Assembly (NCBI GenBank): GCA_963710375.1
Contig: CAVPZX010000005.1
Span: 192,001 to 256,000, forward strand
DNA from: Nitrospirota bacterium
GTDB lineage: Bacteria > Nitrospirota > Thermodesulfovibrionia > Thermodesulfovibrionales > Dissulfurispiraceae
Length of the DNA stretch: 64,000 nt
Direction: 5' to 3'
The position numbers and the translations under genes are program-made. The notes beneath the pieces were generated by a model. The model saw only the letters and a list, made by a program, of their open reading frames with translations. It made no database searches and was not told the DNA's origin. This document shows positions 5,232 through 23,867 of the stretch, piece by piece (position 1 is the first letter of the stretch; each line of letters opens with the position of its first letter).

Positions 5232-6547
5232 TGGAGGGTTGGATGTTTAGGAGATTGGAAGGTTGGAAGCTCGGCAATTTGGCAGCTCGAAAGCTCGGTG
5301 GTTTGGCTAACCCTCTAACCCGCAAGTTCTCCAATCTTCTAATTGGTTACTGGCATAAAGGGGGGGTGGAAATTTACCGGCTTTCCGCCCCAAAAAGTCA
5401 AAGGCTTTCCGGGGGCGCCGGGCCCGCGGAAAGCAAGATCACTCTGTTTGCATCCGGAGGTCTCGACACACTTAAACCTGTCAAAGCATTCGGCAAAATA
5501 GTATTGATTGTGGGGAGAGACCTTTTTCTCCACACAAGGAAAAAGTTTCCCCCGGCATCGTTAGATGATTTGAAGAAAGCTGTAAACCTTGAAATCGGCG
5601 AGTTGTTCCCACTGAAGAGTCCCTCCTTTTTCCTCAATGTTTTTGAGAGGACCGAAGCTTACACCCTGGCTGATATATGGGCGTGGGACAGTTCTGGATA
5701 TGACAACCTGAAGCGTGTGCTCCCCTTTACCTATGTATTGCCGGAAGACATGGCCTTTATATCAGGGGAACCCGAAATCAGTGTTTTGAGCGGCTCTGCC
5801 GGCGACGCCGGTGTCTCCCATTTGCTGGCTCATTCAAAAGAAGGATTTCTCGGCATGTCGTCATTCAGAGGCCGGGTCAGCCGGAGCCACATAGAGAAGC
5901 TTCTCAAGGCGATCAGCAGTCATGCGGAAGAGGTTAAGAGGGTGAACCTTTACGGGGGAGCAGAAGCTGTTACCGCTATTAATGACCTTGGATTCCCGGT
6001 CGTGAAAAAGGAGACCAGGGGGTATCCCGCCTGCCTTGAAAATTTGAGCAGGCTCGATCTTAAACAGTTCAGTGTCCGGACAGAACCGGCTTTTATGGAA
6101 TACATTGATGTCGGCATCAGGTCCGTAATATACCTTTTTGTTGCGTATGGCATATCCCTTATTGTTGCAGGCAGGCATTATGATGCTGCAATCAGTGAAG
6201 TGAAGATAAAGACTGCAAGGCTGACTACGAGCATGTCTGCCGTAATCGTGGGGCAGAAGAAAGATTACGAGGAGGCTGCGGACGAGATGAAGGAAAAGCT
6301 GAAGGGTTGGCGTCCGCCGTTGCCTGTAATGGAGGCGTTGGCCAAAAATCTGCCTGACAAGAGCTATGTGACAAGAATGGTACTTAATGAGACCACACTG
6401 GAGTTGACACTTGCATCGAATGACCCCCTGGCGGTTGTGAAAGCCGTGGGGAGAACTGACGGAGTAAAAACAGTGAAATTGAAGGGCTCGCCTTCGAAAA
6501 ATGATAAAGGGCTTTATACCTTCTATCTTACGGTGGAACTGAAATGA
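5231..6547 (+). CDS. GspL/PilN-like T2SS assembly protein
   Basis: Cytoplasmic domain, one TM segment near residue 300, PilN-like C-terminal domain (ALAKNLPDKSYVTRM). ATG 5231 overlaps the gspK stop (TGATG). Confidence 0.7.
   Translation: MEGWMFRRLEGWKLGNLAARKLGGLANPLTRKFSNLLIGYWHKGGVEIYRLSAPKSQRLSGGAGPAESKITLFASGGLDTLKPVKAFGKIVLIVGRDLFLHTRKKFPPASLDDLKKAVNLEIGELFPLKSPSFFLNVFERTEAYTLADIWAWDSSGYDNLKRVLPFTYVLPEDMAFISGEPEISVLSGSAGDAGVSHLLAHSKEGFLGMSSFRGRVSRSHIEKLLKAISSHAEEVKRVNLYGGAEAVTAINDLGFPVVKKETRGYPACLENLSRLDLKQFSVRTEPAFMEYIDVGIRSVIYLFVAYGISLIVAGRHYDAAISEVKIKTARLTTSMSAVIVGQKKDYEEAADEMKEKLKGWRPPLPVMEALAKNLPDKSYVTRMVLNETTLELTLASNDPLAVVKAVGRTDGVKTVKLKGSPSKNDKGLYTFYLTVELK
5233..5342 (+). repeat. 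Degenerate 8-nt repeat array with inverted arm at the 5' end of the gspL-like gene
   Basis: ggagggtt ggatgttt aggagatt ggaaggtt ggaagctc ...; ttaggagattgga (5247-5259) pairs with tccaatcttctaa (5330-5342). Confidence 0.65.
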
Positions 6548-6551
6548 AGAC

Positions 6552-6654
6552 AGAAGTTGAGAAGTTGCGAAGGTGAGAAGATGAGAGAAAGGATACTGCG
6601 TGAAAATGTGGGTTTGGGGTCTCAACTTCACAACTTCACAATTTCTCAACTTCT
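6552..6654 (+). repeat. Intergenic inverted-repeat hairpin built of 8-nt units (GAGAAGTT/AACTTCTC)
   Basis: 35-nt arms 6552-6586 and 6620-6654; 30/35 Watson-Crick plus one G-U by manual alignment. Confidence 0.9.
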
Positions 6655-8213: not shown

Positions 8214-10391
8214 ATGAGCAGGATATTTCAATGTATCGTGACGGTAATAATTTCTTTAGTGGTCTTTGGATGCGCTTCAACCAAAGAGGTGAAGCCTTCT
8301 GCGTCCGGGCAGGACAATCAACCGGCTGCGGCGTCTGTGACGCAAGGAGACAAAGTCCAGGAAACAAAAAATATTGAATCACTTCAGCCTGCTGAGGAAC
8401 CGAGCCAGAAGAGGCCGGACGAAGACATATTAATGCCGCAAATTAAGAAATCTCTTTATCAGAAATCGCTTCCCGCCAAAGCTGAGCGTATGCCGATAGA
8501 TCCGAAGCGTATTGTGCATGTTTCGGGGAACGTTATTCTTAATGCTGAATCCATGCCCCTTTCGGACTTTATCGTATATGCCCTTGGCGATACCCTGAGG
8601 ATAACTTTTTTCGTGGACGAGCCGGTAATGGCCATGAAAAATCCTATTACCCTCAGAATGACACAGGAAATGCCTGCGGAAAAGGTCGTTGAAGTCGTCA
8701 TAGGCTTTCTCGAGAAAAATGGTTTGGTCGTGGAGGAAAAGGGCGGGGCCCTGTATATCATGAAGCCGAAACCGCCGGCTGTCCAGTCCCCTCCGGTGGA
8801 TTTCAGGATAGGCAGGAATACCGAGGACAGCCCTGCAAACGTATTTCAGTTCGTGCCTTTCAGGCATTTGCATGGAGCGCAAGTAATGCAACTGCTTGGG
8901 GATTTGTTTAAGGATGTCAGGATACAATGGTATAACAAAGAAAACGCCCTTATGCTCAGCGGACCGGCTTCATCCATGAAAGAGATGATCGATTTTATTG
9001 ATTTTATCGATGTCCCCACGTTGAGTGATAAAAAACTCTTTTTGTTCCAGCTTACGTACTGGCAGCCTGATGATTTCATAAGACAGATTAGTGCGATATT
9101 GGAGGGAGTCGGCTATTCTATTGCAAAAGGTCCTGCCGATCCCGGTATTGAATTTATCCCAATCAAGTATCTCAATAGCATACTTATCGTGTCTCCTGAT
9201 GACGCCACGCTGAAATTCGCCCTTGACTGGAAAAGAAGACTCGATACCGCTGAGTCGGCCGGAACAGAGGAAAAGGTATTCACTTTTACCCCGCAGTATT
9301 CCAAGGCGTCGGATCTTGTGGACTCCATAAAAAAGCTGTATGGTGTGATGCCGGCGATCGCGCCGGCAAGAGGACCTCAGGGAGTGCAGGCTGCTCCTGT
9401 TGGCGCTGCTGCCCCGACTGCCACGGCTGCTGCCGCAGTCCCACTTCCGACTACTGCTTCCGTGTCTCCTGCGTCTCCTGTGTCTTCTGTGTCTTCTGCC
9501 TCAATCCCGGGGCTGAAGATTTCAGGCGACGACAGGAGAAATATTGTCGTCATCATTTCAACCCCCTCCATATTCAAGTCTGTTCTCGCTATCCTACAGG
9601 AGCTGGATAAGCCGCCTAAACAGGTGCTCATAGAGGCCATGATAGCCGAGCTGACCCTTACAGACGATCTGTCCTACGGGCTCGAATGGTACCTGCAGAC
9701 CAGGAATAAGACATCGGGCACATCGAACTCGCTTACCACCCTCGGTCAGCTAGGGCTAAACACATCCTCCGGCCTTGTATATAACTTTTTGTCTGACTCG
9801 CAGAGATTACAGGCCGTTGTGAATGCTTTTGCGCAGCAGAACAAGGTGAATATTCTTTCGACTCCTAGGATAATGGTCCTCGATAATCAGACCGCAACAT
9901 TGAATGTAGGATCTCAAGTGCCCATTTTAGGGGGCCAGACAACAACTTCCACTGTTGAAGGGTCTACTGTAAATGCCCAGGTTGTTTCATACGTCACTAC
10001 AGGAATTACCGTGAGTGTAACACCGACAATCAACACCGAAGGACTGCTTACCCTTCAAATATCTGTTACGGACAGTCAGGCGGTGCCGAATTCAACTTCT
10101 TCAATAAACAGCCCTTTGATAACCAACGACTCGCTGTCCACCAGCATTGTTGCCACGACATCGGAAACTATATTATTGGGAGGGATGATGTCGGACAGTG
10201 TGACCGACAGTGAGTCGAAAGTTCCCCTTCTCGGTGATATACCGTTGCTAGGGAACCTTTTCAAGACAAGGTCAAAGGACAAAACAAAGACTGAATTAAT
10301 AATAATGTTGACGCCCAAGATTCTGACAAGCGGCGACGAGGCAGCAAGAATCACCAATGAAATTAGAAAGAGTATTAAATGGTTGCAGTGA
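8214..10391 (+). CDS. gspD: Secretin GspD, predicted lipoprotein
   Basis: Lipobox-like VFGC; LDKPPKQVLIEAMIAE, ILSTPRIMVLDNQTATLNVG, KVPLLGDIPLLGNLFK, TELIIMLTPKI. Confidence 0.95.
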   Translation: MSRIFQCIVTVIISLVVFGCASTKEVKPSASGQDNQPAAASVTQGDKVQETKNIESLQPAEEPSQKRPDEDILMPQIKKSLYQKSLPAKAERMPIDPKRIVHVSGNVILNAESMPLSDFIVYALGDTLRITFFVDEPVMAMKNPITLRMTQEMPAEKVVEVVIGFLEKNGLVVEEKGGALYIMKPKPPAVQSPPVDFRIGRNTEDSPANVFQFVPFRHLHGAQVMQLLGDLFKDVRIQWYNKENALMLSGPASSMKEMIDFIDFIDVPTLSDKKLFLFQLTYWQPDDFIRQISAILEGVGYSIAKGPADPGIEFIPIKYLNSILIVSPDDATLKFALDWKRRLDTAESAGTEEKVFTFTPQYSKASDLVDSIKKLYGVMPAIAPARGPQGVQAAPVGAAAPTATAAAAVPLPTTASVSPASPVSSVSSASIPGLKISGDDRRNIVVIISTPSIFKSVLAILQELDKPPKQVLIEAMIAELTLTDDLSYGLEWYLQTRNKTSGTSNSLTTLGQLGLNTSSGLVYNFLSDSQRLQAVVNAFAQQNKVNILSTPRIMVLDNQTATLNVGSQVPILGGQTTTSTVEGSTVNAQVVSYVTTGITVSVTPTINTEGLLTLQISVTDSQAVPNSTSSINSPLITNDSLSTSIVATTSETILLGGMMSDSVTDSESKVPLLGDIPLLGNLFKTRSKDKTKTELIIMLTPKILTSGDEAARITNEIRKSIKWLQ

Positions 10392-10434
10392 AGAAGGGGC
10401 AATAGGCTATGGGTGATAGGAAATAAAAAAACGA

Positions 10435-10541
10435 ACCACAGAGGCACTGAGACACAGAGAAAGCAAATGATAGCGAAAAAGGAAAAGACGTTTTCTTTCT
10501 GTATTATGGAGCATACCTCTGTGCCTCTGTGTCTCTGTGGT
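10435..10541. repeat. Intergenic inverted repeat of CACAGAG-type units (MITE/REP-like)
   Basis: accacagaggcactgagacacagag (10435-10459) versus ctctgtgcctctgtgtctctgtggt (10517-10541); 22/25 Watson-Crick plus one G-U. Confidence 0.85.
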
Positions 10542-10775
10542 ATGTTTTTGCAATTGGCAAATTTGGCATCAAAATTGCTCTCTATATAAATAAAATTCAA
10601 GGGTAATAATTTTTTTAGACTCAGTGAAAAAAGGGTTGTTCTTTTTGAATGGATATGGTATATATATCATACTTTGTGTTTTCTATTATATATTTGATCG
10701 GGTTGCAACGGTACTTTAAACATCACGTCCGCGGGAGAGGATTGAGGCGTGGGGTAATAGGGCTGTATTAATCAC

Positions 10776-10804
10776 TTGACAAGAAGATATAATTTAATTA
10801 TTAT
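10776..10804 (+). promoter_or_regulatory. Sigma70-type promoter of the S-layer-like gene
   Basis: TTGACA (10776-10781), 17-nt spacer, TATTAT (10799-10804) in an AT-rich region. Confidence 0.75.
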
Positions 10805-11016
10805 TAGTGCATCTTTAAAGCTTTAGGCAGAGGCGGTAAATGTTTAAAATGAAATTAATCATCGGTTGTTATTTAGGGTTAGAGTAAATGAAATTCAGTA
10901 ATCAAGGAGGTGATGAGAAAAGCCGATCCTTGGGAGAGTAAGGAAGCAGGAAGTGCGAACACTTTGCGGTTATCATCATTATTATTTATTATTTATCAAA
11001 AAAAGGAGGATTGAAA

Positions 11017-12591
11017 ATGACTAAGTTTTTAAAGGTTTCTTTTTTAGCAATGTTGATTGTTGCCGTAATGGCATTGCCGGCCTTTGCAGGCACCATTACA
11101 TTTTGGGGTTCACCTGGCGGTACAAGTGGTGCAGCTAATGTCAAATATTCAGTTGCCTTGGAGGCAATGAATGCTGCGAGAAATTTCACTATAACCAGTT
11201 CATCCGGGACAACCGGCTCCGGATACGCTAATGCGCCATTAAAAATCACCCCCGGCCAGCAATTGGCCAGCGGCTCATTGTTGACTATCACATTGGCAAA
11301 TGCCGCGTTTAATGCCGGAGCTACCGGAAGCGTACTTTTGTGCGCTGCTACCAGCGATACCGCGTCAGTAGACGTCCCTGTTGCGGCCCAGCAGCCTGCA
11401 GCAAACAGCGCAAGCTTGTCGTGGGTATTAGGTACTACAGTATCCACCGGCCAATTTCTCTTTGTGACAACGTCTGGGACAACATCTTGCAGTAACAGTA
11501 ATGCAAGCTTGAGTGTTCAGTTCCAGCCTGTCTCATCAGCAGCCTTGGCCTCGGTTTCTTATACTGTTTCCCTGAACTCAACCACGTATGACCAAAAATC
11601 GGCTGTCAATTTCGCTAACTTTGCTAGGGAGTTCACAACAGCTTACGCAAATTTACCTTCTACAATTGATTATACGACGAACAGCGCTTCAAACGGAGCC
11701 CATTTTGTTGTAGGTACAGGAGCTAATGCTGCCAACGCGGGTACGGCGAATATTGCTCGCGGCACGGTAGATTTTAGTGCTGAGGCCGTCGGCGCCACCG
11801 GTGCCAGCCTTTCAGTAGCAGGTATATTGTCCCTTCAGGATTCAGCATCCTGGCAGGGTGTGAAGGATGCTTATGTGCTTGGTAGTGCTGGTGGTGGTAA
11901 TAATTGTGCCGCCGCTGGGCCTGGAGCTAATAACGCGATAGTACAAGGCGCTGCAAATCTTGGCACTGGAACAGTGAACCTGGCTGTATCTTCAGCCGCA
12001 TTTAATGGTGCGGCGTCCTATGCTGCGGTTGCGTGCGTTGATGTGCTGGGCAATACTGTTCTTCAGTCCAGGTCGATCAAGGGATTCTACACTGTCAACG
12101 GTGGAGTCGCTGATGTTGATTCCGCGACACTCCTTATGACCTGGTCACCTAACGGTTATCAGGCAATAATTCCGTATATTAACGGATCCTCGACATTCGA
12201 CACGATATGCACCATCAGTAACCAGGGCGCAACTGCTGCACCTGCGACTGCTACTTTACTTTCAGCAGAGAGCATAGGCGCGGCTGGAGGATCTATTCCA
12301 ACAGGTGCACAGGGTATTAGCCTGGGTACAGTGCCGGCTAATGGACTAATACGTGTAGACTTTACTTCATCAATTACGCCTTACACGTATAGCGGTGGTG
12401 TTGAGACCGCAGGCACGGCAGTTGCGATTCCTGGCGTCCAGGGTAATGACAGGATGTCTGTCATACTGAATGTCGGAGCAGGTGTAACTGCGATTCAGAC
12501 AAATTGCATTCAAACGGATACCCTTGCTGGTGTCAAGAGAAATGTGCCGGTGCTGACGCAAACCAGTGGCACAGTTCCATGGCAGCAGTAA
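11017..12591 (+). CDS. Secreted cell-surface protein, probable S-layer subunit
   Basis: SD AAGGAGGA; Sec signal ending PAFA; A/G/S/T/N/V-rich with few charged residues; own promoter and terminator; adjacent to T2SS. Confidence 0.7.
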   Translation: MTKFLKVSFLAMLIVAVMALPAFAGTITFWGSPGGTSGAANVKYSVALEAMNAARNFTITSSSGTTGSGYANAPLKITPGQQLASGSLLTITLANAAFNAGATGSVLLCAATSDTASVDVPVAAQQPAANSASLSWVLGTTVSTGQFLFVTTSGTTSCSNSNASLSVQFQPVSSAALASVSYTVSLNSTTYDQKSAVNFANFAREFTTAYANLPSTIDYTTNSASNGAHFVVGTGANAANAGTANIARGTVDFSAEAVGATGASLSVAGILSLQDSASWQGVKDAYVLGSAGGGNNCAAAGPGANNAIVQGAANLGTGTVNLAVSSAAFNGAASYAAVACVDVLGNTVLQSRSIKGFYTVNGGVADVDSATLLMTWSPNGYQAIIPYINGSSTFDTICTISNQGATAAPATATLLSAESIGAAGGSIPTGAQGISLGTVPANGLIRVDFTSSITPYTYSGGVETAGTAVAIPGVQGNDRMSVILNVGAGVTAIQTNCIQTDTLAGVKRNVPVLTQTSGTVPWQQ

Positions 12592-12616
12592 AAATGTAGT
12601 AATAGGTCTTTCAGAG

Positions 12617-12646
12617 AAGAGGCGGACTTTTGTCCGCCTCTTTTTT
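12617..12646 (+). terminator. Rho-independent terminator
   Basis: aagaggcggac-tttt-gtccgcctctt followed by a T run. Confidence 0.9.
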
Positions 12647-12705
12647 GTATAAAAATTAACCACAGAGACATAGAGTCAGAGGGGATGAAAGAGGGAGGTA
12701 TAAAA

Positions 12706-13179
12706 TTGGGCTCTAAAAAGTCATTAATATGCATTTTTTTGTTTTCTGCCGTGGTACTTTTCTTAACGGATGCGCGCTCTGAAGAAAATCATTGGAAGTT
12801 TATGGGCAAGACAAAGGACACCCATTATCTTATATATTACGATACAGCGAACGTTGACTACATAAGAAAAGACTATGTGCGTGTGAGACTTAAAAAGGAA
12901 CTCTCGGAAGAGGGATTAGTGCAGTTCAGGAAGGATTTCTATTCTTCTGTTAAAACCGCCGAGGAACAGTCAGGAGGCAAAGTGGAAAACCCGGAGCCCC
13001 TTTTGAAAGCGTTGGCAAAACACGAGACAAAGGAGTATCCAATCGATATTGACTGCTCCAGCAATGAGTTGAAAGTGCAGCCTGACAAGATGTCGGCAAT
13101 CAATATTGTTGTTGTCGATGAAATACAGGCAGGTACGGCATTTGAGAAAATAAGAGACGAGGTTTGCCCGAAAAAATGA
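12706..13179 (+). CDS. Small secreted protein, surface-adhesin-E-like
   Basis: Signal peptide; W.FMG....Y.YD...V.V..K, IDC and C-terminal EVC pattern. TTG start follows GGAGG (alternative ATG at 12685). Confidence 0.55.
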   Translation: MGSKKSLICIFLFSAVVLFLTDARSEENHWKFMGKTKDTHYLIYYDTANVDYIRKDYVRVRLKKELSEEGLVQFRKDFYSSVKTAEEQSGGKVENPEPLLKALAKHETKEYPIDIDCSSNELKVQPDKMSAINIVVVDEIQAGTAFEKIRDEVCPKK

Positions 13180-13230
13180 GGAGCCTGTCGGCTTGCTTTT
13201 TTGTTATTCTCTGTTTTATTATTCAACTCC

Positions 13231-15141
13231 ATGTCTAAATCAAAAGAAAAATCAAAAGAAAACCACTCGACAGTAATGCGAAAGGAGATGGCCTCAGAGG
13301 GGACCGCAGACAGTATTGTCGTCCATGAATATCCTTCCGTCGTAGAGTGGTTTAAGACCGTTGCAACCAACATAACCAACAACTGGTTCATTATCGGACT
13401 GGCGATATTCGCGGTATTTGTTGCTTTCATGTTTTATTATCCATCGGTGGGTGGCGACGAAGACATTTGGTTTCATATCAGATATGGATATCACTTTGTC
13501 CATAACATGACATGGAAGATAAACCACGCACAGTTCAACTGGATCCCTTTTGAACCTAATTTCAAGTATGTGACCTGGATAGGAAGCTCCATACTTTATA
13601 TATTCTATGCTCTGATGTCGCATTACGGGCTCTATCTGCTCCAATACATAGTCATAGGCTCTATTGTGGGCTGCTTCCTTTATTTCCTTAAAAAAACAGC
13701 ATACCGCTTCGATATTACAAGTCTGCTGGCAATGCTGGCTGTCCTTCTGGTTTTGAACCTCAAATACCTCTATATCAAGCCGGATATGTTCAGCGGATTG
13801 TTGTTTACCGTTGCCTGCATGCTTTACTATAAGGTCAAGGAAACCGGAAACTGGAGACTGTTTTATGTCTATCCGCCGATGTTCCTCCTCTGGGTTAATA
13901 CTCATGGCGGCTTCATAGTGGGACTATTCTTTATAAGCGCCGCACTCGGATGCGAATTCGTTAATTCCTTCATATTCAGGAATGCGAGACTCGACAACAA
14001 AAGCCTTCTGCATTTTGCGTTAAACGTTGTCCTTAGCTATGCCGTTATCGGTATAAACCCTGAAGGCTATGGCTACTTTACAGGCATAATCAGCGATTTT
14101 TTCTCTCCGGGGATGAAAACGACAGAGGCAATCATAGCTGAATATGGCAGCATGTGGGGCACTCTTTTGCTTAAACCTGCAGGTTTCAGGTTTAAATTTG
14201 CAGCATTTTCAATGCTCGCTATGCTTGTAGTGTTTATCGGAATATGCATTTATCTTATCAAGAAGAAGAAATTCTTTGATATGCCGTCCGTCTTTCTTGT
14301 TGTCTTTTTCTATATCTTTGCAATGTCCATTGTTCGCGCATCCCAATATTATCCCCTTATCTGGTTCTTTGCCTTTTTTTACGTTTATAAGCGGTTCGAT
14401 GCCGTAAAGATCAAAGGCGTCTTCAACTTTATATCCCTGTTAATAATATTCATGTTGTGCTTTAGAATAGTCAATTTGGCGCTTGTTGATTATGACTCGA
14501 TTGCATGGTTTGGCACCAACTGGGAGGAAAGCTACCCTGTCAAGGAAGTGCAATACATAAAGAAGGCGAACCCTCCGGGCAATTTGTGGAATGATTACTT
14601 GACGGGAGGCTATCTCTTATGGGCACTGTATCCCAAATACAAGGTCTTCGTCGATCCGCGCTACGGCGGATACATGGCAAACTTTATGCCCACGGCCGAG
14701 GAGTATAAAGATGCTAAAGGACTGGAGGCGTATACAAAGAGGTTCCCCTTCAAGGTGGCCATCGTGGCTTATCATGAAACTCAGATTATCGAATGGCTTC
14801 TGAAAGCGGATTGGAGGATTGCCTTCCTGGACAAGAACGCCCTGGTAATTGTCAATAAGTCGGTGATCCCCGAGCTGTCGAAAGCTGCCCTGGAAGAGGA
14901 CGTCAGCACCAATAGATTTTTGAATGTCGATAACCCCAACATTCTCAGGACATTGTTTAATTTCTATGTAAACCTTGGTCCAAGTTTCGGAAGGGAGATT
15001 ATAGAAATATACCAGAGGAACGTCAGAACAATCTACAGGAACAGGGATTCCGATCTGAACAACATGCGGAATTTTCTTGAACAGAAAGAGGCCGAGATAG
15101 CTGCGCAGAAAGGCAAAGGCAAGACTGGACAAACAAAATGA
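13231..15141 (+). CDS. Polytopic membrane protein, probable GT-C-fold glycosyltransferase
   Basis: More than ten TM segments; acidic DEDIWFH after TM1; WVNTHGGF; periplasmic C-terminal domain with NDYLTGGYLLW and VFVDPR. Confidence 0.6.
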   Translation: MSKSKEKSKENHSTVMRKEMASEGTADSIVVHEYPSVVEWFKTVATNITNNWFIIGLAIFAVFVAFMFYYPSVGGDEDIWFHIRYGYHFVHNMTWKINHAQFNWIPFEPNFKYVTWIGSSILYIFYALMSHYGLYLLQYIVIGSIVGCFLYFLKKTAYRFDITSLLAMLAVLLVLNLKYLYIKPDMFSGLLFTVACMLYYKVKETGNWRLFYVYPPMFLLWVNTHGGFIVGLFFISAALGCEFVNSFIFRNARLDNKSLLHFALNVVLSYAVIGINPEGYGYFTGIISDFFSPGMKTTEAIIAEYGSMWGTLLLKPAGFRFKFAAFSMLAMLVVFIGICIYLIKKKKFFDMPSVFLVVFFYIFAMSIVRASQYYPLIWFFAFFYVYKRFDAVKIKGVFNFISLLIIFMLCFRIVNLALVDYDSIAWFGTNWEESYPVKEVQYIKKANPPGNLWNDYLTGGYLLWALYPKYKVFVDPRYGGYMANFMPTAEEYKDAKGLEAYTKRFPFKVAIVAYHETQIIEWLLKADWRIAFLDKNALVIVNKSVIPELSKAALEEDVSTNRFLNVDNPNILRTLFNFYVNLGPSFGREIIEIYQRNVRTIYRNRDSDLNNMRNFLEQKEAEIAAQKGKGKTGQTK

Positions 15142-15914
15142 AGGTTGTTATTTTAGCAGGGGGGCTTGGCACACGTCTGAGCGAAGAGACTGATATAAAA
15201 CCCAAGCCGATGGTCGAGATAGGCGGAAAGCCTATCCTCTGGCATATCATGAAGATTTATTCTCACTATGGTTTCAATGATTTCATCATCTGCCTCGGCT
15301 ATAAAGGCTATGTCATAAAGGAATACTTCGCCAACTATTTCCTTCATCAGTCCGATGTTACTATAGATTTGAGCGTCAACAAGCTGGAGGTCCATAACTG
15401 TAAGGCAGAGCCCTGGAGGATTACCCTTATAGAGACAGGATTGAACACGAATACAGGAGGCAGGATAAAGAGAATAAAAGATTATGTCGGCGAAGAGACC
15501 TTTATGCTTACCTACGGAGATGGCGTTGCTGATGTAGATATAGGTGGACTCCTGGAGTTTCACAAATCTCACGACAAGGCAGCTACAATCACCTCAGTTC
15601 AGCCTACTGGCAGATACGGTGCATTGGAACTTGATGAAAAGAGTAGAGTGACAAATTTTCAGGAAAAACCGCAAGGCGATGGGGCGTGGGTAAACGGCGG
15701 CTTTTTTGTATTGGAGCCTGAGGTATTTGATTATATATCCGGGGATGAAATCATATGGGAAAGGGAACCGCTCGAATATTTAGCGAGTCACGGTCAGCTC
15801 GATGCATATAAACACCAGGGATTCTGGAAATGTATGGATACCCTTCGCGACAAGACAGAGTTGGAAACCCTCTGGAGTTCCCGAAACGCACCCTGGAAGA
15901 AATGGAACGACTAA
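15138..15914 (+). CDS. rfbF: Glucose-1-phosphate cytidylyltransferase
   Basis: ILAGGLGTRLSEET..KPKPMVEIGGKPILWHIMK; TYGDG; CMDTLRDK; APWKKW. Confidence 0.97.
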   Translation: MKVVILAGGLGTRLSEETDIKPKPMVEIGGKPILWHIMKIYSHYGFNDFIICLGYKGYVIKEYFANYFLHQSDVTIDLSVNKLEVHNCKAEPWRITLIETGLNTNTGGRIKRIKDYVGEETFMLTYGDGVADVDIGGLLEFHKSHDKAATITSVQPTGRYGALELDEKSRVTNFQEKPQGDGAWVNGGFFVLEPEVFDYISGDEIIWEREPLEYLASHGQLDAYKHQGFWKCMDTLRDKTELETLWSSRNAPWKKWND

Positions 15915-15918
15915 ATAT

Positions 15919-16027
15919 GAAGTTGAGAAATTGAGAAGATGTGAAGATGAGAAAAAGAAATGTAAGCCTGATTTGTTGTCGCGCACCTTCTCACCTTCTC
16001 AGCTTCCCATCTTCGGATCGCCGAAGG
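15919..16027 (+). repeat. 8-nt-unit inverted-repeat hairpin immediately upstream of the four-helix-bundle gene
   Basis: gaagttgagaaattgagaagatgtgaagatgagaa (15919-15953) and caccttctcaccttctcagcttcccatcttc (to 16014), then cttcgg-atcg-ccgaag. Confidence 0.85.
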
Positions 16028-16031
16028 TGTG

Positions 16032-16433
16032 ATGGTGGGCAATAGTCAGAAAATAAAAAGTGTTAGGGATTTGGATGTTTATAAGATGGCTTTCAATGCG
16101 GCAATGGACATTTGGCAGATAACAAACGGTTTTCCCAAAGAAGAAAAATATTCTCTTGTAGATCAAATAAGGCGTTCTTCAAGATCTGTATGTTCAAATC
16201 TTGCAGAAGCGTGGCGAAAGAGGCGATATAAAGCCGTGTTCAAGAATAAGTTGACTGATGCTATGCAAGAGGCTTCTGAAACGCAGACATGGCTGGAGTT
16301 CAGTGTTGCTTGTAAATATGTTGATCAAAATAAATTTGATGACTTTGATCAAAAATATGAACATATATTAGCTATGTTGAATAATATGGACTTGAAAGCT
16401 GAATCCTTCTGCTTCTCAACTTCTGATAAATAA
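16032..16433 (+). CDS. Four helix bundle protein (23S rRNA IVS-encoded protein family)
   Basis: DLDVYK.AF...FPKEEKYSLVDQIRRSSRSVCSNLAEAWRKRRY...EASETQTWLEF family signature. Confidence 0.93.
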   Translation: MVGNSQKIKSVRDLDVYKMAFNAAMDIWQITNGFPKEEKYSLVDQIRRSSRSVCSNLAEAWRKRRYKAVFKNKLTDAMQEASETQTWLEFSVACKYVDQNKFDDFDQKYEHILAMLNNMDLKAESFCFSTSDK

Positions 16434-17638
16434 TGTTTAGGGACGTATATAGAGGTAAGCAAGTATTAATCACTGGTCACACGGGATTCAAAGGCTCTTG
16501 GCTTGCCCTGTGGCTCAGAGAGTTAGGAGCGAATATAATCGGTTATTCCCTTGATCCACCTACAAACCCCAATCATTTTGATTTGCTAGCCTCTTCTCAG
16601 GTTCTCACCTTCTCATCTTCTCAACTTCCCAACTTCATCTCTATTTTCGGAGATATACGGGATGTAAAGAAGCTGAATCAGACCTTTCAGAACTATAAGC
16701 CTGATATAGTCTTCCACCTCGCTGCACAACCTCTCGTCAGGTATTCATATAAACATCCGCTCGATACATTTGAGACAAATGTGATAGGGACAATAAATGT
16801 TCTTGAAGCTTGCAGACAGACTGAATCAGTCAGGGCAGTAGTAAATATAACGAGCGACAAGTGCTATGAAAACAAAGAATGGGTATGGGGCTATCGTGAG
16901 AGTGACCCGTTTGGCGGTTACGACCCCTACAGCGCATCAAAAAGTTGCGCAGAGCTTGTGACTAACTGTTACAGGCGCTCTTTCTTTATAACTGAAACTG
17001 AGAAGTTGAGAAGGTGTGAAGGTGAGAGTAAAGCCGAAGGACTCACAACTTCTCAACTTCTCAACTTCACAACTTCAGTCCTTTTAGCCAGCGCAAGAGC
17101 GGGCAATGTCATAGGCGGCGGAGATTGGGCAGCGGACAGATTGATTCCCGACATTATGAGGGCGGTCAGCCGGAATAAGAAGGTTGTTATCAGAAATCCC
17201 AAGTCAACCCGTCCCTGGCAGCATGTGCTGGAGCCGTTGTCAGGTTATCTGGCGCTTGGGCAGAAGCTCTTGGAAGGGAAATCGGAATTTGCCGATGGGT
17301 GGAATTTTGGGCCTGATGATGAAAGCAACATATGTGTTGAAGAAGTTGCAGAAAAGATGACCAGCTTCTGGCATAAAATTGGTTACCAACGCAAACCATT
17401 TAAACATCCAAGCCTCCGGCCATCCGACCCTCATGAGGCTGGTCTGTTAAAACTTGACTGCTCGAAAGCCCATTCAAGGCTTGAGTGGAAACCTGTCTGG
17501 GATATTAAGAAAACGCTTGTAATGACCGCTCAATGGTATAAAGAGTTTTACGAACGTGATGGAATAATGAGTCAGAAGGATTTGGATGAGTATATTCTGA
17601 ATGCGAAGGAAAAAGGTTTGCGTTGGGCAGTTGATTGA
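16433..17638 (+). CDS. rfbG: CDP-glucose 4,6-dehydratase with two repeat-derived in-frame insertions
   Basis: TGHTGFKGSWL, HLAAQPLVR, TSDKCYEN, DPYSASK, RAGNVIGGGDW, RPWQHVLEPL. Confidence 0.96.
   Translation: MFRDVYRGKQVLITGHTGFKGSWLALWLRELGANIIGYSLDPPTNPNHFDLLASSQVLTFSSSQLPNFISIFGDIRDVKKLNQTFQNYKPDIVFHLAAQPLVRYSYKHPLDTFETNVIGTINVLEACRQTESVRAVVNITSDKCYENKEWVWGYRESDPFGGYDPYSASKSCAELVTNCYRRSFFITETEKLRRCEGESKAEGLTTSQLLNFTTSVLLASARAGNVIGGGDWAADRLIPDIMRAVSRNKKVVIRNPKSTRPWQHVLEPLSGYLALGQKLLEGKSEFADGWNFGPDDESNICVEEVAEKMTSFWHKIGYQRKPFKHPSLRPSDPHEAGLLKLDCSKAHSRLEWKPVWDIKKTLVMTAQWYKEFYERDGIMSQKDLDEYILNAKEKGLRWAVD
16593..16636 (+). repeat. Pyrimidine-rich 8-nt tandem array in frame inside rfbG
   Basis: cttctcag gttctcac cttctcat cttctcaa cttcccaa cttc encodes SSQVLTFSSSQLPNF. 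Confidence 0.88.
16991..17079 (+). repeat. In-frame 8-nt-unit hairpin inside rfbG
   Basis: 39-nt arms (16991-17029 and 17041-17079), 32/39 complementary, 11-nt loop. Confidence 0.92.
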
Positions 17639-17662
17639 GCAGGTTTGTCGGAAGACTCCTAC

Positions 17663-19108
17663 ATGGAAAGAAGAGAACAACTAAAACAGGAAATATTTGA
17701 GAGAATAAGGGCATTTTATCAGCTTGTGCATGAGACATCCCACAATGCAGAGTTTGTTGCAGGCAAAAGTCGCATAAACTATGCAGGCCGGGTATTTGAT
17801 GAAGAAGAGATGATTAATCTTGTCGATAGTTCCCTTGATTTCTGGCTTACAACAGGCAAATATGCCGAAAGGTTTGAAAAAGAATTTGCAGATTTCCTTG
17901 GAGTGAAATATTGCTCTCTTGTCAATTCAGGGTCTTCAGCTAATCTCCTCGCGTTTATGGCGTTAACATCTCCGAAGCTCGGTGATAGAAGCATTCAGAG
18001 GGGCAATGAGGTCATAACAGTAGCAGCAGGTTTCCCAACCACAGTCGCTCCCATCATTCAGTATGGCGCTGTGCCGGTATTTGTTGATGTTACGCTGCCG
18101 GCATACAACATAGATTGTTCGCAGCTCGAAAATGCACTATCAGATAAAACAAAGGCTGTAATGGTCGCGCATACCCTCGGCAATCCCTTCGATATCCGGA
18201 CGGTAAAAACGTTCTGCGATAAACATAATCTCTGGCTCATCGAGGATAACTGCGACGCTCTTGGCAGTAAATACCGAAGGTGGGAAGTTGAGAAGGTGAG
18301 AAGTTGTGAACGTGAGAAGGCAGGCCCAACTTCACAACTTCACAACTTCCCACCTTCGGAGCTTTACGGCTACACCGGGACTTTCGGGCATATTGGAACG
18401 TCGAGTTTTTATCCGCCCCATCATATGACTATGGGAGAAGGCGGCGCTGTTTATACGAACGATATTCAGCTCAAAGGGATAATAGATTCTTTCCGTGACT
18501 GGGGCAGGGACTGCTGGTGTGTGTCGGGTAAAGACGATACATGCAAAAAACGCTTTAAATGGCAGCTCGGAGAACTTCCTTACGGATATGATCACAAATA
18601 TATCTATTCCCATTTCGGGTATAACTTAAAGGTTACCGACATGCAGGCGGCTATAGGCTGTGCGCAACTCGAAAAGCTGCCCTTTTTTATTGAAGCAAGA
18701 AAGAAAAACTGGAGTCTTCTGAGGGACGGGCTGCATGACCTTTCAGATAAGTTTATCCTGCCTGAGCCTACTGCGAATTCAGAGCCATCCTGGTTTGGGT
18801 TCCTGTTGACTGTGAAGGAGAGCGCGGGTTTTACGAGGGATGAGATAGTGAATTATCTTGAATCAAATAACATCCAGACACGTATGCTCTTTGCAGGAAA
18901 TATACTGAAGCATCCCTGCTTCGATGAAATGAGAAAAACCGGCCACGGTTTCCGTGTCATTAGGGACTTACCGGTAACTGACCGCATAATGCGCGACAGT
19001 TTTTGGGTTGGGGTCTATCCGGGGATGAAAGAAGAGGCGATCGAATATGTCATGCAAAAGATAAAAGAGTATGCAAGACATGAACAATCGATTCCCGGTT
19101 TAGGGTAA
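17663..19108 (+). CDS. rfbH: CDP-4-keto-6-deoxyglucose 3-dehydrase (E1) with in-frame hairpin insertion
   Basis: NSGSSANL, AAGFPTT, SFYPPHHMTMGEGG (His replacing the Schiff-base Lys), RDWGRDCWC, GYDHKY. Confidence 0.95.
   Translation: MERREQLKQEIFERIRAFYQLVHETSHNAEFVAGKSRINYAGRVFDEEEMINLVDSSLDFWLTTGKYAERFEKEFADFLGVKYCSLVNSGSSANLLAFMALTSPKLGDRSIQRGNEVITVAAGFPTTVAPIIQYGAVPVFVDVTLPAYNIDCSQLENALSDKTKAVMVAHTLGNPFDIRTVKTFCDKHNLWLIEDNCDALGSKYRRWEVEKVRSCEREKAGPTSQLHNFPPSELYGYTGTFGHIGTSSFYPPHHMTMGEGGAVYTNDIQLKGIIDSFRDWGRDCWCVSGKDDTCKKRFKWQLGELPYGYDHKYIYSHFGYNLKVTDMQAAIGCAQLEKLPFFIEARKKNWSLLRDGLHDLSDKFILPEPTANSEPSWFGFLLTVKESAGFTRDEIVNYLESNNIQTRMLFAGNILKHPCFDEMRKTGHGFRVIRDLPVTDRIMRDSFWVGVYPGMKEEAIEYVMQKIKEYARHEQSIPGLG
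18274..18359 (+). repeat. In-frame 8-nt-unit hairpin inside rfbH
   Basis: 33-nt arms (18274-18306 and 18327-18359), 30/33 complementary, outer 17 bp perfect. Confidence 0.93.
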
Positions 19109-21199
19109 TATTTCATTCAGCAATTGCCGGGTTTTTTGGTCATCCGGCTTTATCTTTAACCTTGTCATCAATTGAATGCGCGCATTTTCTATAATATCCG
19201 GTCTCAGGCGCAGGGCAGTTTCGAATTCATTTTTGGCCTTGTCAAGTCTGTCGCTGTCGTAATAAACAAGGCCAAGATTAAAATGTGCTTCTGCGTAATC
19301 GGGCGCAAGTTTAATGGCAATCAGATACTGCTCAATAGATTTGTCAGGCATGTTGATGGCATGATAGGCAATGCCGAGATTATTATGTGCCTCAGCATAA
19401 TCAGGCTTGAGTTTAATGGCAATGATATATTGCTCAATAGCATTGTCAAGCATGTTGCGACTTTTATAAAAATTACCAAGTCTGGCATGTGCATTTGCGT
19501 AACGGGGGAATCTTTTAACTGTATCTTCCCACATTTTTTTGCTGTCTCCATATAGATTGTTCTGCAAATGAGCTGCGACTGACAGAATGCTTATAATAAG
19601 GGCGAGCGTCACTAGTATCACATTGCCGGCTTTCTGTGAACGAATTTTTTCTTTCAGCAGAAATACCCCCGTAACTGTGCAAATGATTACCCCGACCGAG
19701 GGCAGATACATTCGATACGTTTCAATAAGCCTCGGCGTAGGTATAATGCTCGATTCAACTGAAAGGGTGATAAAGAACCACAATATACCGAAACCCATCA
19801 AACGAAAAGCAGGACTAAGGGCAGAGGACTGAGAGGCGAGGACTGAGGACTGAGGACTGAGAGACGAGGACTGAGAGGCGAGGACTGAGGACTGAGGACT
19901 GAGAGACGAGGACTGAGAGGCGAGGACTGAGTTTTCGTCTTCGCGCTTTGCCCTCAGTCCTTTGCCCTTAGTCCTCAGTCCTGGACCCTCTTCCTTTGGC
20001 CCTTTCCACTCAGTCCTCAGTCCTTCGCCCTCAGTCCTCAGTCCTCGCCTCTCTTTTTTCTGCACTAAATAAATCCCCAGTCCAAATAGCGCTGAGAGAA
20101 ACACAAATGAAACGGATACCTGCGGTTGAAAAAAAGACTTAAACACAGGGTACTCATAATTGAGTTCCAGGTTTGCCGGGAAAAACAGCATTCGCAGGTA
20201 AGTGACAATGACCCTGAACTGGGTGAAAAAATACTCTCCCCGCGAGTAGTCCCAGGTGAATCCGGCCATATATGAGCCCGGGTCAATAAGGCTGGGATTA
20301 ATCAGTTGTGTGCCGCGTACTTCGGTCACTGTCGGCATGCTCATAATAGTCAGAGGTATGATGCAAAGTGAAAGCAATAATGGAGCAAGAACGAGCATCC
20401 TCTTCTTAATGCCGCCATTAAAAAAACAAAACTCGTACAACGTTATCACAAAGGGCAGAGTAAACGCATTCTCCTTTGTTTTCATTGCCAGGACCGCTGA
20501 AAGAAGGGATATGGCGTACATAGTCCGGCGCCGGGCTTTATGATGGTCAGGAGCCTCCAATCTGAACTTAATATATGCTGTGAGGGAAAGGAGATAGAAA
20601 AAAGCGGCGAGAGAGGCATAACGTTGCATGACATACGTAACCGCCGCTGTCTGCAGCGGGTGGACGGCAAACAGAGCGGCGGAGAAGAAGGCAATCACTG
20701 CCGGATTGCCTGAACTTGAGAAATTGAGAACTTGTGAAGGTGTGCCCTTTGCCCTATGCCCTATGCCTTTCATGTAAGGTGTTCTGAATGTCAATAGAAC
20801 AAGCAAATAAACCAGGATTGTATTGGCGATATGAATGGCAATATTGACAATATGGTAGCCGGTCACCGATAAACCGTTTATACGGTAGTTGAGCGCAAAG
20901 GTGAGATGCGAGATGTAGCGGGATATGAAAAAACGGTAATTCTCAAACCCTTGAGCTGTTGAGGGGTGAAGGAAATAATTAAGGTCCTTGATAATAGGCT
21001 CGTTAACAATATGCATCTCTTCATCCCACTGAAATGGGACATTCAAGGCATTGGAGTAAATGATCAGAATAAGCAGAGACAGACAAGCGATATGCACAAA
21101 GGAGTTATATGTCAATGACAGCGGACTGAACGATGCATGTGCAGGGGGAAGGTCATTGTGACGGATCAGCTTATTTGTTTTCTTACCCTTGTTTTTCAT
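19100..21199 (-). CDS. TMTC-like membrane glycosyltransferase (GT-C) with C-terminal TPRs, paralog 1
   Basis: YSNAL..PFQWDE, YHIVNIAIH, AVHPLQTAAVTY, KTKEN, YRMYLPS, TPR repeats (YAEAHNNLG). Confidence 0.8.
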   Translation of the reverse strand: MKNKGKKTNKLIRHNDLPPAHASFSPLSLTYNSFVHIACLSLLILIIYSNALNVPFQWDEEMHIVNEPIIKDLNYFLHPSTAQGFENYRFFISRYISHLTFALNYRINGLSVTGYHIVNIAIHIANTILVYLLVLLTFRTPYMKGIGHRAKGTPSQVLNFSSSGNPAVIAFFSAALFAVHPLQTAAVTYVMQRYASLAAFFYLLSLTAYIKFRLEAPDHHKARRRTMYAISLLSAVLAMKTKENAFTLPFVITLYEFCFFNGGIKKRMLVLAPLLLSLCIIPLTIMSMPTVTEVRGTQLINPSLIDPGSYMAGFTWDYSRGEYFFTQFRVIVTYLRMLFFPANLELNYEYPVFKSFFQPQVSVSFVFLSALFGLGIYLVQKKERRGLRTEGEGLRTEWKGPKEEGPGLRTKGKGLRAKREDENSVLASQSSSLSPQSSVLASQSSSLSPQSSVLASQSSALSPAFRLMGFGILWFFITLSVESSIIPTPRLIETYRMYLPSVGVIICTVTGVFLLKEKIRSQKAGNVILVTLALIISILSVAAHLQNNLYGDSKKMWEDTVKRFPRYANAHARLGNFYKSRNMLDNAIEQYIIAIKLKPDYAEAHNNLGIAYHAINMPDKSIEQYLIAIKLAPDYAEAHFNLGLVYYDSDRLDKAKNEFETALRLRPDIIENARIQLMTRLKIKPDDQKTRQLLNEILP
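19811..20050 (-). repeat. In-frame 7-nt (GGACTGA/TCAGTCC) inverted repeat array in paralog 1
   Basis: Encodes RRGLRTEGEGLRTEWKGPKEEG...SVLASQSSSLSPQSS; purine-rich arm followed by its complement. Confidence 0.92.
20712..20770 (-). repeat. Mixed 7-nt (AGGGCAT/A) and 8-nt (TTCTCAA) in-frame insertion in paralog 1
   Basis: Minus strand reads aaggcatagggcatagggcaaagggcacaccttcacaagttctcaatttctcaagttc. Confidence 0.8.
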
Positions 21200-21217
21200 A
21201 AAAGATCCCTGACCGTT

Positions 21218-23867
21218 TCAGCGTGAGATTGCATTCAATAACTGACGGGCTATCTGGTCATCAGGCTTTATCTTTAATCTCGCTATCAACTCTCTGCGCG
21301 CATTTTCCAGTTGTCCCATATTATAGTAGAGGACTCCGAGATTAAAATGAGCTGTTTCATTATCCGGTTGGAGGCGTATGACAGTTTGTAATTCATTCAC
21401 GGCCTTGTCAGGCATGTTGAGGGACTGATAAAGAATAGCGAGATTATTGTGCGCTTCCACATAGTTGGGCTTCTCCTGTATTGCGGCCAGATAGTGTTCA
21501 GTTGCCTTGCCAGACATGCCCTGATCTTTATAGACATTGGCTAGATTATAATGCGCCTCAGGGTAATCAGGCTTCAGATTAATGGCAGTCTGAAACTCTT
21601 TTATAGCCTTGTCAGGCATGTTGAGGGCCTGATAAACAGCTCCCAGATTATTATACGCTTCTATAAAATCGGGTTTTAGATTAATGGCAGTCAGAAACTC
21701 TTTTATAGCCTTGTCAGGCATTTTGAGGGCCTGATCATAGAGGACGCCAAGATTGTAATGCGCCTTCCAGTGCCCAGGGGCAAGACTTATTGCAGTCAGA
21801 TATTCCTTTAAAGCAGCATCGGGCATACCGAGGTCTTGATAGCTGTTGCCGAGACCGAGATGCGCTTCAGTGGAATCAGGATTAATTTTCAAGGCAAGCT
21901 GAAACTGTTCCGCAGCCTTGTCCGACATGCGATGGTGTCGGTAGGCCAACCCAAGATTATAATGCACTCTTTCTTTTGCAGGGAATTTTAACGCGTCTTC
22001 TTTCCATAACTTGACTTCGTCTCTCCACATATCATTGCGCATATATGTAGCAACTGACAGTACGCCTGCAGCAAGTGCAAGAATGGTTACTATCACCCTA
22101 CCGGCTTTTGGGGAACGCAGATTTTCTTTCAGCAGAAATGCACCGGTAACAACGCAAACAAATATCCCCATTGAAGGCAGATACACGCGGTGTTCAAAAA
22201 TCACATCGGCGATGGGTATGATGCTCGACTCCACTGAGAGAGTGATGAAAAACCACAATATCCCGAAACCCATCAACTTAAAGGCAGGACTGAGGGCAGA
22301 GGACTGAGAGGCGAGGACTGAGGACTGAGGACTGAGTGCCAAGGACTGAGAGACGAGGGCAGAGGACTGAGGACTGAGAGACAAGGACTGAGAGGCGAGG
22401 ACTGAGGACTGAGTGTCAAGGACTGAGGACTGAGCAGAGAGGACTGAGTTTTGGTCTTCGATCTTTGCACTCAATCCTCTGCCCTCAGTCCTCAGTCCTG
22501 GATCCTCTTTCCTTTGGCCCTTTCCACTCAGTCCTCAGTCCTCTGTCCTCAGTCCTTGTTTTTTTCTCGCTCCACAGCACTAAATAAATGCCCAGCCCGA
22601 AAAGCGCGGCAAGAAACATAAACGAAAAGATCACCTGGGGGTAAAAGAAAGATCTATAAATAGGATAGTCATAGTCGACATTCTGTCCTGCGGGGAAAAA
22701 CAGCAGCCGCATATATCTCACAATTACTGAGAACTCCGTCATCAGGTATTGCCATGGCGTCGTCCTTGTCTGCACTGTTATCTTGCTCGCATCCGACAAT
22801 ACTTTCCCCAACGGCTGGCTCACATTCAGCAAGCTCAAAGGAATGATGACCACTGTTGCCAGCAGCGGCAAGGCCCATAGAGCCCTCCTGAGCAGATTGC
22901 CTCTGCCGAAGAACACCAGTTCGTACAACACAACAATAAACGGCAGTGTAAAGGCTATCTCCTTTGTCATCATCGCAAGCACAGCCGAAACAATAGAAAT
23001 CCCATAATAAAAATATGGCATGTATTTTCGTTTTTCCCGGCTACCGGCCACCGGCCCCTGGCCACTGTCTTTTGCTTCTTGCCCTCCGCCCTCAGTCCTC
23101 AGTCCTTGGTCCTCTGCCCTCAGTCCTCGCCTCTCAGTCCTCAGTCCTTGGTCCTCTGCCCTCAGTCCTCTGCTCTCAGTCCTCAGTCCTTGGTCCTCCG
23201 CCCTCAGTCCTCGCCTCTCAGTCCTCAGTCCTTGGTCCTCTGCCCTCAGTCCTCGCCTCTCAGTCCTCAGTCCTCTGCCCTCAGTCCTTGTTTTATTACC
23301 CTCAGTCCTTGACTTTATATATGTCACTAATGAAAGGAGATAAAAAAATGAAGCGAGGGACGCAAGCCTCTGCACTATATAAGTGACCGCCTGAGTTTGG
23401 ATAGGATGCACCGCAAACAAGACAGCAGAGAAGAAGGCGATCAGCCCGGAATCGCTGAGTACTAAAGACTGAGGACTTAGGACTGAGGGCATAGGACTGA
23501 GGACTGAGGACTGAGGACTCATGGCCGGTGTTCTGAATGTAAATAGCACAAATAAATAAACCAGCATGGAGTTAGCAATATGAATTGCAAGATTGACTAT
23601 ATGGTAGCCGGTCACATTTGAACCACCCAAGCTGTAGTTCAGGGAAAATGTCAGATACCCGATGAATCGTCTAGAAAAATGTTCATACCCTGTGGAACTG
23701 AACAGAAAATTTCCGATATGACGCACTATACTGTTATCAATTATGTTGAATTCATCGTCAAATACAAACGGCGCATGAAAAGTATTAGAATAACAAATCA
23801 GGCATAATAGAGCTATAATGCCGGCATGTAAGAGCTGGGAATTATGATTTTGATTTGGAAATTTCAT
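21218..23867 (-). CDS. TMTC-like GT-C + TPR protein, paralog 2; split by a +1 frameshift near 22508-22510
   Basis: ORFs 22485-23867 (FVFDD, AVHPIQT) and 21218-22474 (EHRVYLPS, TPRs) join if one T is removed from ctctttcc; both paralogs read ctcttcc here. Confidence 0.8.
22286..22556 (-). repeat. 7-nt inverted repeat array in paralog 2 (site C)
   Basis: ggactga units 22286-22447 followed by tcagtcc units to about 22556. Confidence 0.92.
23090..23309 (-). repeat. 7-nt array with 42-nt higher-order repeat in paralog 2 (site B)
   Basis: GLRTE(R/S)RGLRAEDQ occurs four times in tandem. Confidence 0.93.
23455..23519 (-). repeat. 7-nt array in paralog 2 (site A)
   Basis: Encodes SPQSSVLSPMPSVLSPQSLVLS. 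Confidence 0.88.

Follow-up and report, generated by a model that had tools for sequence, protein, structure and literature searches.

The window analysed here, a stretch of 64,000 nucleotides from a Nitrospirota bacterium, holds a four-helix-bundle gene between rfbF and rfbG, with arms of an octamer repeat (GAAG-N-TG-N) around and within these genes. The genome of the studied contig (hereafter G000) is 3.19 Mb in size and 98.8% complete. The features are as follows; purine arms are denoted R and pyrimidine arms Y.

6553..6653, + strand: gene-less hairpin of the GAAG-N-TG-N word at an operon junction (fold z -7.63)
15138..15914, + strand: rfbF, glucose-1-phosphate cytidylyltransferase, the upstream host gene (TIGR02623, 449 bits)
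15919..15953, + strand: R1, purine arm of 4 GAAG-N-TG-N units + GA, beginning 5 nt past the rfbF stop
15981..16014, + strand: Y0, pyrimidine arm of 4 units, local partner of R1, not at this place in the congeners G001-G003
16023..16040, + strand: R2, short purine arm of 2 units + GC
16029..16433, + strand: four-helix-bundle gene (PF05635/TIGR02436) of the octamer clade, 134 aa from the first GTG
16407..16424, + strand: Y1, shortened pyrimidine arm of about 2 units within the last codons of the gene (4 units in G001-G003)
16433..17638, + strand: rfbG, CDP-glucose 4,6-dehydratase, with three in-frame repeat inserts (TIGR02622, 489 bits)
16589..16636, + strand: Y2, lone pyrimidine arm, in frame in an RfbG loop, the in-silico long-range partner of R1
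16994..17076, + strand: gene-less hairpin of the GAAG-N-TG-N word, in frame in rfbG
17387..17428, + strand: 42-nt in-frame pyrimidine insert in rfbG, of a different octamer word
17645..19108, + strand: rfbH (NF011936, 745 bits)
18276..18357, + strand: gene-less hairpin of the GAAG-N-TG-N word, in frame in rfbH (fold z -8.21)

The ORF at 16029-16433 scores 115 bits with PF05635 (cut-off 33.8) and 103.6 bits with TIGR02436 (cut-off 24), and its TIGR02623 and TIGR02622 neighbours place it between rfbF and rfbG, as the original prediction had it. The period-8 arrays claimed there are recovered by TRF (15919-15953, 15984-16014, and 16593-16636), and the repeat hairpin expected just upstream of the gene is clearly visible in a fold of 15910-16035 at -46.5 kcal/mol, an energy reached by 0 of 200 shuffles (z -6.39). 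Pyrimidine units had also been described in the last codons (16407-16424); this tract is present but merely about two units long. Overlooked at that stage was R2 (16023-16040), the second short purine arm, which holds the start codon of the gene. The last unit of R2 gives an in-frame GTG (16035), and the same unit position is the start in three orthologues. The dN/dS of the gene is 0.045-0.12 in six pairs, indicating purifying selection, and the gene at 16029-16433 is intact and conserved.

Among 12 relatives with a true rfbG, seven have rfbF directly before it and no gene between, in line with the claim that the two genes are normally adjacent. The other five comprise three with the same gene, one with an internally deleted remnant, and one without rfbF there. 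The congeners G001-G003 carry the same gene at the rfbF-rfbG junction with 78-88% identity. In G019, a gene remnant with an internal deletion lies at the junction with both arms kept, and a few purine units remain at the gene-less junction of G009. The layout in G001-G003 consists of a purine arm (one or two runs) on the 5' side and a four-unit pyrimidine arm over the last codons, with no local hairpin. G000 differs in that both inner arms are cut to about two units and an extra pyrimidine arm closes the local hairpin. The start codon lies inside the last purine unit in four of four orthologues; as a rule for the whole clade, a start codon within a repeat unit was rejected, since it holds in only 10 of 34 members.

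The original prediction further proposed that the upstream arm pairs with the downstream tracts and loops out the whole gene, as in an rRNA intervening sequence (IVS). When 15900-16650 is folded, the MFE and centroid structures both pair 15919-15953 with 16593-16636 (z -3.07, yet 1 of 20 shuffles folded equally well), so that the proposed pairing with the rfbG tract is the in-silico optimum. Pairing with the tract at the 3' end of the gene is weaker, reaching -20.9 kcal/mol versus -30.8 kcal/mol for the local hairpin and being absent from the ensemble. The local hairpin R1:Y0 is kept in a fold that ends at the end of the gene, and once the rfbG tract is added, R1 pairs there with about 30 expected pairs. 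The nested long-range pattern is also found in two of the three congeners, and R1 pairs with Y1 around the gene in G001-G003 (30-36 expected pairs). Y2 lies 52 codons inside rfbG. IVS-like loop-out of the whole gene is not borne out, since excision would take the rfbG start and the nucleotide-binding glycine motif, and the wildcard positions are paired only about half the time. Ribosomes would open the long-range stem, since Y2 is translated, and we consider loop-out in the form proposed unlikely. No DNA joint skipping the gene was found in the contigs of eight DNA runs, a weak test because contigs drop rare variants, and the listed joints from the R1 end have intervening other letters or short sides and fit other hairpins. 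On the other hand, the link to rRNA stands at the level of the family: in G000 and congeners alike, one loop of the 23S rRNA is filled by gene-less hairpins, once with the GAAG word, and passages of PMC4990558 describe heptamers before the ORF of the Coxiella IVS.

Across G000, the GAAG-N-TG-N word forms 47 arrays, versus 0 in each of three shuffled genomes. Twenty gene-less hairpins of this word all run purine-then-pyrimidine, none in the opposite order, and two of them are in frame inside rfbG and rfbH. Arms consist of four full units + 2 nt in 35 of 47 arrays, and an arm of five units matching a pentamer was rejected on this mode; for all words, 231 of 302 arms have 4-5 units. The wildcard positions 5 and 8 are free letters, paired in about half of the folds, and the median uninterrupted helix is 11 bp. 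The wildcards of paired arms match each other below random partners (0.40 vs 0.50, P 0.001). This mismatch and the tight four-unit length make the arms look like a motif rather than inverted copies. As a general rule, favoured mismatch was not upheld, being significant in one of six words, weak in the same direction in four, and reversed in GTGAANN. Few arms are identical, with four shared 24-mers among the 47 arrays.

When all words are combined, G000 has 151 hairpins of period 6, 7, or 8; the G-rich arm comes first in all 151, and their gene context resembles the background. Gene-less copies occupy tolerated places, namely operon junctions, in-frame surface loops, the 23S rRNA loop, and tRNA spacers. 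Intergenic copies between co-directional genes mostly begin 2-13 nt past the stop and end 8-21 nt before the next start, nine hairpins sit inside long ORFs, and the rfbG/rfbH loop segments have a length that is a multiple of three in 22 of 22 measured (seven genomes). Clustering near the own gene differs between words: 13 of 40 copies lie within 60 kb for the GAAG word and 15 of 16 for GACTGAG, versus 0 of 100 for GTGAA and 5 of 99 for the hexamer. A role as terminators was rejected: none of six terminator-like matches fell at arms, and the gaps between convergent genes hold no excess of hairpins (18 of 142 vs 401 of 2907). In window 10000-25000, no Rfam match reached the gathering score, and all 32 weak matches lay below it. 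Repeat arms, mostly of the hexamer, also lie within 150 nt of 11 of the 46 tRNA/tmRNA genes in G000.

Several other elements in the window are recorded here as separate observations. Three paralogous membrane-plus-TPR genes with long in-frame GACTGAG heptamer arrays lie at 19100-26091, and the four-helix-bundle gene of the GACTGAG word is about 14 kb past the window end. One of the TPR genes is split at 22474/22485 (ORFs 21218-22474 and 22485-23867), which suggested frameshifting or splicing at hairpins, an idea that was rejected. The contig has one extra base at 22508 compared with three of four DNA runs, the fourth having no cover there, and the split is most likely caused by an assembly error at this base. 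An octamer CACAGAG-type repeat pair lies at 10424-10539. The secreted-looking protein of 526 aa encoded at 11011-12591, rich in Ala/Gly/Thr/Ser and following a secretin-like cluster, may be an S-layer or surface protein. No PF13366 gene was found in G000.

G000 holds six PF05635-type genes with a separate flanking word for each: four are heptamers, one is a hexamer, and one is the octamer GAAG-N-TG-N. Since six paralogues carry six words in one genome, host mutation bias cannot account for the words. The original prediction had suggested a check of the paralogues for the same flanks, and all six are armed, though each with a word of its own. Its idea that the gene is the gene-carrying version of the empty hairpins nearby is thus supported by 6 of 6 paralogues and 71 of 80 clade homologues with arms, and the element at window 5232 and the remnant in G019 agree with it.

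The clade homologues are 80 relatives of the studied protein, found by peptide patterns taken from the query, and a period was assigned to their flanks where it exceeded the 99th percentile of 1150 shuffles. Period-8 flanks were seen in 68, period 7 in three, and no call was made in nine, whereas 30 other PF05635 genes of the same order gave period 7 in 23 and period 8 in four; the locus L147 is also heptamer-flanked. Among period-8 loci with both flanks, 58 of 67 have purine before and pyrimidine after the gene. A quick tree of 110 of the 115 rows (five dropped) places 77 rows in one clade with an SH-aLRT of 99. Within it, the GAAG-type words of a 37-row group span about eight phyla, and a second group of 35 rows has other octamers, with weak support for both (87 and 80). 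Octamer-clade proteins have a one-residue insertion (residue 63) and a basic WRKRR loop that other subtypes do not have, a feature that heptamer-flanked members share and for which the query pattern had fixed the adjacent residues. The clade genes lie in about 60 different contexts (74 upstream neighbours fall into 60 clusters, and rfb genes were seen at 3 of 80 loci), indicating that gene and arms move together. No conserved partner gene was found beside the clade.

Distant copies of the words were counted in 80 related genomes out of 104. Three tandem GAAG units gave 34-75 matches in exactly the four of these 80 genomes with an intact orthologue, 1-3 matches in six, and 0 in 70; the four are congeners, so this abundance may be one event. 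Across phyla, among 25 genomes picked from each of the two groups in the tree, word A is present in 22 of the inner-clade and 1 of the sister-clade genomes (at least five matches in 13 and 1), and word B in 0 and 14 (at least five matches in 0 and 10), where the patterns come from flanks of the same genes, making low or single counts circular, and clade is partly confounded with phylum. Hexamer arrays occur in 7 of 7 genomes with a hexamer-type gene and also in 15 of the 73 without it. The latter include G001 (20 matches, 88% complete) and G003 (25 matches, 100% complete). In G000 itself, five words with 6-24 arms each have no gene of their own, and one of them has its gene in G001; neither our own HMM nor tblastn gave further four-helix-bundle genes in G000 for such orphan words. 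Arrays without a cognate gene imply that the arms outlast the genes or that some genes serve several words.

The sites of these elements persist while the words change. We compared the elements of G000 with eight regions of G001-G003, several of them chosen for octamer arrays, which gave 28 rows. In the 25 rows with an element in both genomes, the word is the same in 13, the word or period differs in 11 (two of which may be paralogous genes), and the word is related in one; the remaining rows are one empty and two unalignable. Words in the RfbG loops are replaced at the same length between genomes. The Y2 site has a different octamer word in G002, the site of the hairpin at 16994..17076 has another word in G003, and the 42 nt at 17387..17428 are the GAAG word in G002 and G003. 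At window 5232-5325, where G000 has a gene-less array of a second octamer word, G001 carries a full heptamer-armed four-helix-bundle cassette.

The 23S rRNA offers a further case. In both 23S genes of G000 (C2:683937-686987 and C2:1067567-1070618; L165 and L166), a 138-nt gene-less hexamer hairpin replaces a 6-nt loop at about positions 283-288 of the Rfam model. The same loop has the hexamer in G005 and G007 and no repeats in G016, and two copies in G003 (a genome with 6% contamination) differ, with a heptamer in one and the GAAG-N-TG-N octamer in the other. The conserved outer stem of this loop holds three different words. A chimeric element at window 20712-20767, in frame in a TPR gene, joins an octamer arm to the heptamer arm of another word and is a possible swap intermediate. 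The nested arms and this chimeric pair suggest how word swaps proceed. At L176 in G003, orthologous to G000:C5:183590, another palindromic element, which we take to be REP-like, is seemingly inserted in the loop of a heptamer hairpin.

The structure model of the protein has four long helices (pLDDT 93) with an rmsd of 1.2-2.2 Å to 2GSC and 2RLD (TM about 0.7-0.8), both of which are five-chain structure entries. Avd (4DWL) matches the model more weakly (TM 0.73), and the Avd profiles stay below their cut-offs (NF033474, 27.4 vs 80 bits; PF22296, 25.4 vs 40). PF05635 is noted as Avd-like in a passage of PMC10053308. According to passages of bioRxiv 10.1101/2023.10.23.563531, five of five protomers of the Avd of diversity-generating retroelements (DGRs) contact a stem-loop, and flipped-out bases enter crevices between protomers.

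We consider a mobile gene-plus-arms cassette, encoding an Avd-like pentameric ring that would bind hairpins of its own word, to be the best explanation, one that we hold about evenly poised between true and false. Such a cassette would have reached many sites and phyla. The protein is probably a pentamer, by analogy with 2GSC, 2RLD, Avd, and the IVS protein in passages of PMC4990558, and, after the example of Avd, may read the fixed letters of a stem mismatched at its wildcards, most likely as RNA. A ring reading fixed letters on a periodically mismatched stem fits both the arm anatomy and the link between subtype and word. Cognate binding would account for gene-less copies of a word growing abundant in genomes that hold the gene, and, since the start codon and a purine-rich leader lie in the last purine unit, it would also control the translation of the gene itself. 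Internal deletion of cassettes may give rise to empty hairpins, as may recombination or nested insertion among existing ones; the resident protein would favour its own word. With no catalytic domain known in the protein, the DNA chemistry would fall to host enzymes, and the arms seem likely to decay slowly once the gene is lost. Against the binding model, co-inheritance alone explains the flanks.

Two rival readings are both unlikely. The arms might pair in the transcript and RNase III cut out the gene or loop without rejoining, making the hairpins processing sites in operon mRNA and rRNA. The same parts are found in the Coxiella IVS, which is excised by RNase III and has heptamers before its ORF (passages of PMC4990558); the RNase III gene (rnc) is present in G000, the 23S loop bears gene-less hairpins in G000, G003, G005, and G007, and R1:Y1 encloses the gene in G001-G003. 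However, the favoured stem here would cut out the rfbG start, the nine hairpins in long ORFs and the 22 of 22 in-frame loop segments are as expected if they are translated rather than removed, helices run uninterrupted for a median of 11 bp and pair their wildcards in about half of cases, and the subtype-specific words are left unexplained. No more probable is that the arms are selfish microsatellite hairpins, spreading by slippage and gene conversion after seeding, and that the gene is a co-inherited passenger with an unrelated role. Slippage and copying would be expected to yield uniform units and arms that match, yet the wildcard letters are free to vary and identical arms are scarce. Arms also keep tightly to four units, all 151 hairpins begin with the G-rich arm, and word and protein clade go together even across deep divergence. 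In favour of this reading, arms persist without the gene, the local clustering of some words (GAAG, 13 of 40 within 60 kb; GACTGAG, 15 of 16) fits local copying, and slippage is invoked for heptamer arrays in passages of PMC4692102.

Two further readings concern the making of the arms. The stand-alone pentamers may be specificity factors of an undescribed process that both installs and rewrites short tandem-repeat arms at existing hairpin sites, one subtype per word, which we regard as a rather doubtful proposal. A writer role is quite improbable; in it, the protein would lend specificity to a polymerase that adds repeat units to existing hairpin scaffolds, as Avd acts with its reverse transcriptase. 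The different word or period at the same site in 11 of 25 comparisons, the same-length replacement at RfbG loops, the 23S outer stem with three words, the independent wildcards, and the structural kinship to Avd all speak for such writing. Nevertheless, no reverse transcriptase (PF00078) was found in the 98.8% complete G000, the clade has no conserved partner gene beside it, and the nested and chimeric arms can explain word swaps by recombination.

Our preferred reading, a binding ring and its cassette, connects a very large family of proteins whose function is unknown with repeat hairpins of 6-8 bases that have had no explanation and with rRNA intervening sequences. It also accounts for the odd low-complexity stretches found within enzymes like RfbG and RfbH. 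G000 offers six proteins and six words, making the link directly testable. If the word code holds, these proteins would be natural, sequence-programmable nucleic-acid-binding rings. If the reading in which arms are installed and rewritten is true, there would be a recognition code between protein and word. The high number of 6-8-mer repeats in many genomes of bacteria would then be explained, and the S23p intervening sequences would simply be copies that landed in rRNA.

Each part of the system has a counterpart in print. As described in passages of PMC4990558, the Coxiella 23S IVS has a near-perfect 28-bp stem and is excised by RNase III; its ORF is decaying, and tandem heptamers precede the start codon. 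Like it, the present gene is a PF05635 gene within complementary arms, in a genome with RNase III and gene-less hairpins in the 23S loop. Unlike it, the gene lies in a protein operon between rfbF and rfbG, with none of the six paralogues in either 23S gene; its ORF is under purifying selection, mismatches fall at two positions in every eight of the arms, and gene-less copies number in the hundreds, some of them translated in frame. An enclosing stem, R1:Y1, is predicted in G001-G003; in G000, where Y1 is short, R1 has its best partner inside rfbG, and all these stems are periodically mismatched.

RAYTs are single-copy domesticated genes according to PMC5581495, and REPIN-RAYT systems resemble the present one: a single-copy conserved gene is flanked by its own genome-wide repeats, gene-less inverted doublets occur, and several gene/repeat pairs coexist per genome. 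However, the protein here is a four-helix bundle without a known nuclease or transposase domain. Pfam gives only PF05635 and a weak bAvd match, and the fold is all-helical, with no tyrosine (HUH) transposase. The repeats are tandem 6-8-mers with wildcards instead of palindromic REPs, and their sites persist while the word changes. DGR Avd has the same fold, and its pentamer binds an RNA stem-loop with flipped-out bases (passages of bioRxiv 10.1101/2023.10.23.563531). In contrast, our protein scores below the Avd model cut-offs, its neighbours are rfbF and rfbG, and G000 has no PF00078 match, hence no reverse transcriptase linked to the gene. The true-looking DGR avd of the congener G002 (L164) has no arms; this Avd-like gene is followed by template-repeat-like sequence and is likely a true DGR, judged by appearance only.

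Repeats of similar size have been described as inverted heptamer pairs in Xanthomonas and Nostoc (passages of PMC4692102) and as intergenic TAACTGA heptamers in Beggiatoaceae (PMC4679880). These too are short 7-mer arrays near gene ends, often in convergent pairs, and a binding protein was sought for them and not found. A term search of PMC4679880 gave no mention of helix-bundle or intervening-sequence proteins, and the passages of PMC4692102 hold no such link. Our literature search, with most subscription journals and supplements outside its scope, found no published link of PF05635 genes to dispersed repeat hairpins. Unlike in those genomes, several words of 6-8 bases coexist here, each tied to a gene subtype. 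The locus is apparently one member of an undescribed gene-plus-repeat system, whose parts are each already in print and whose combination departs from IVS, DGR, and REPIN systems in a defining property of each.
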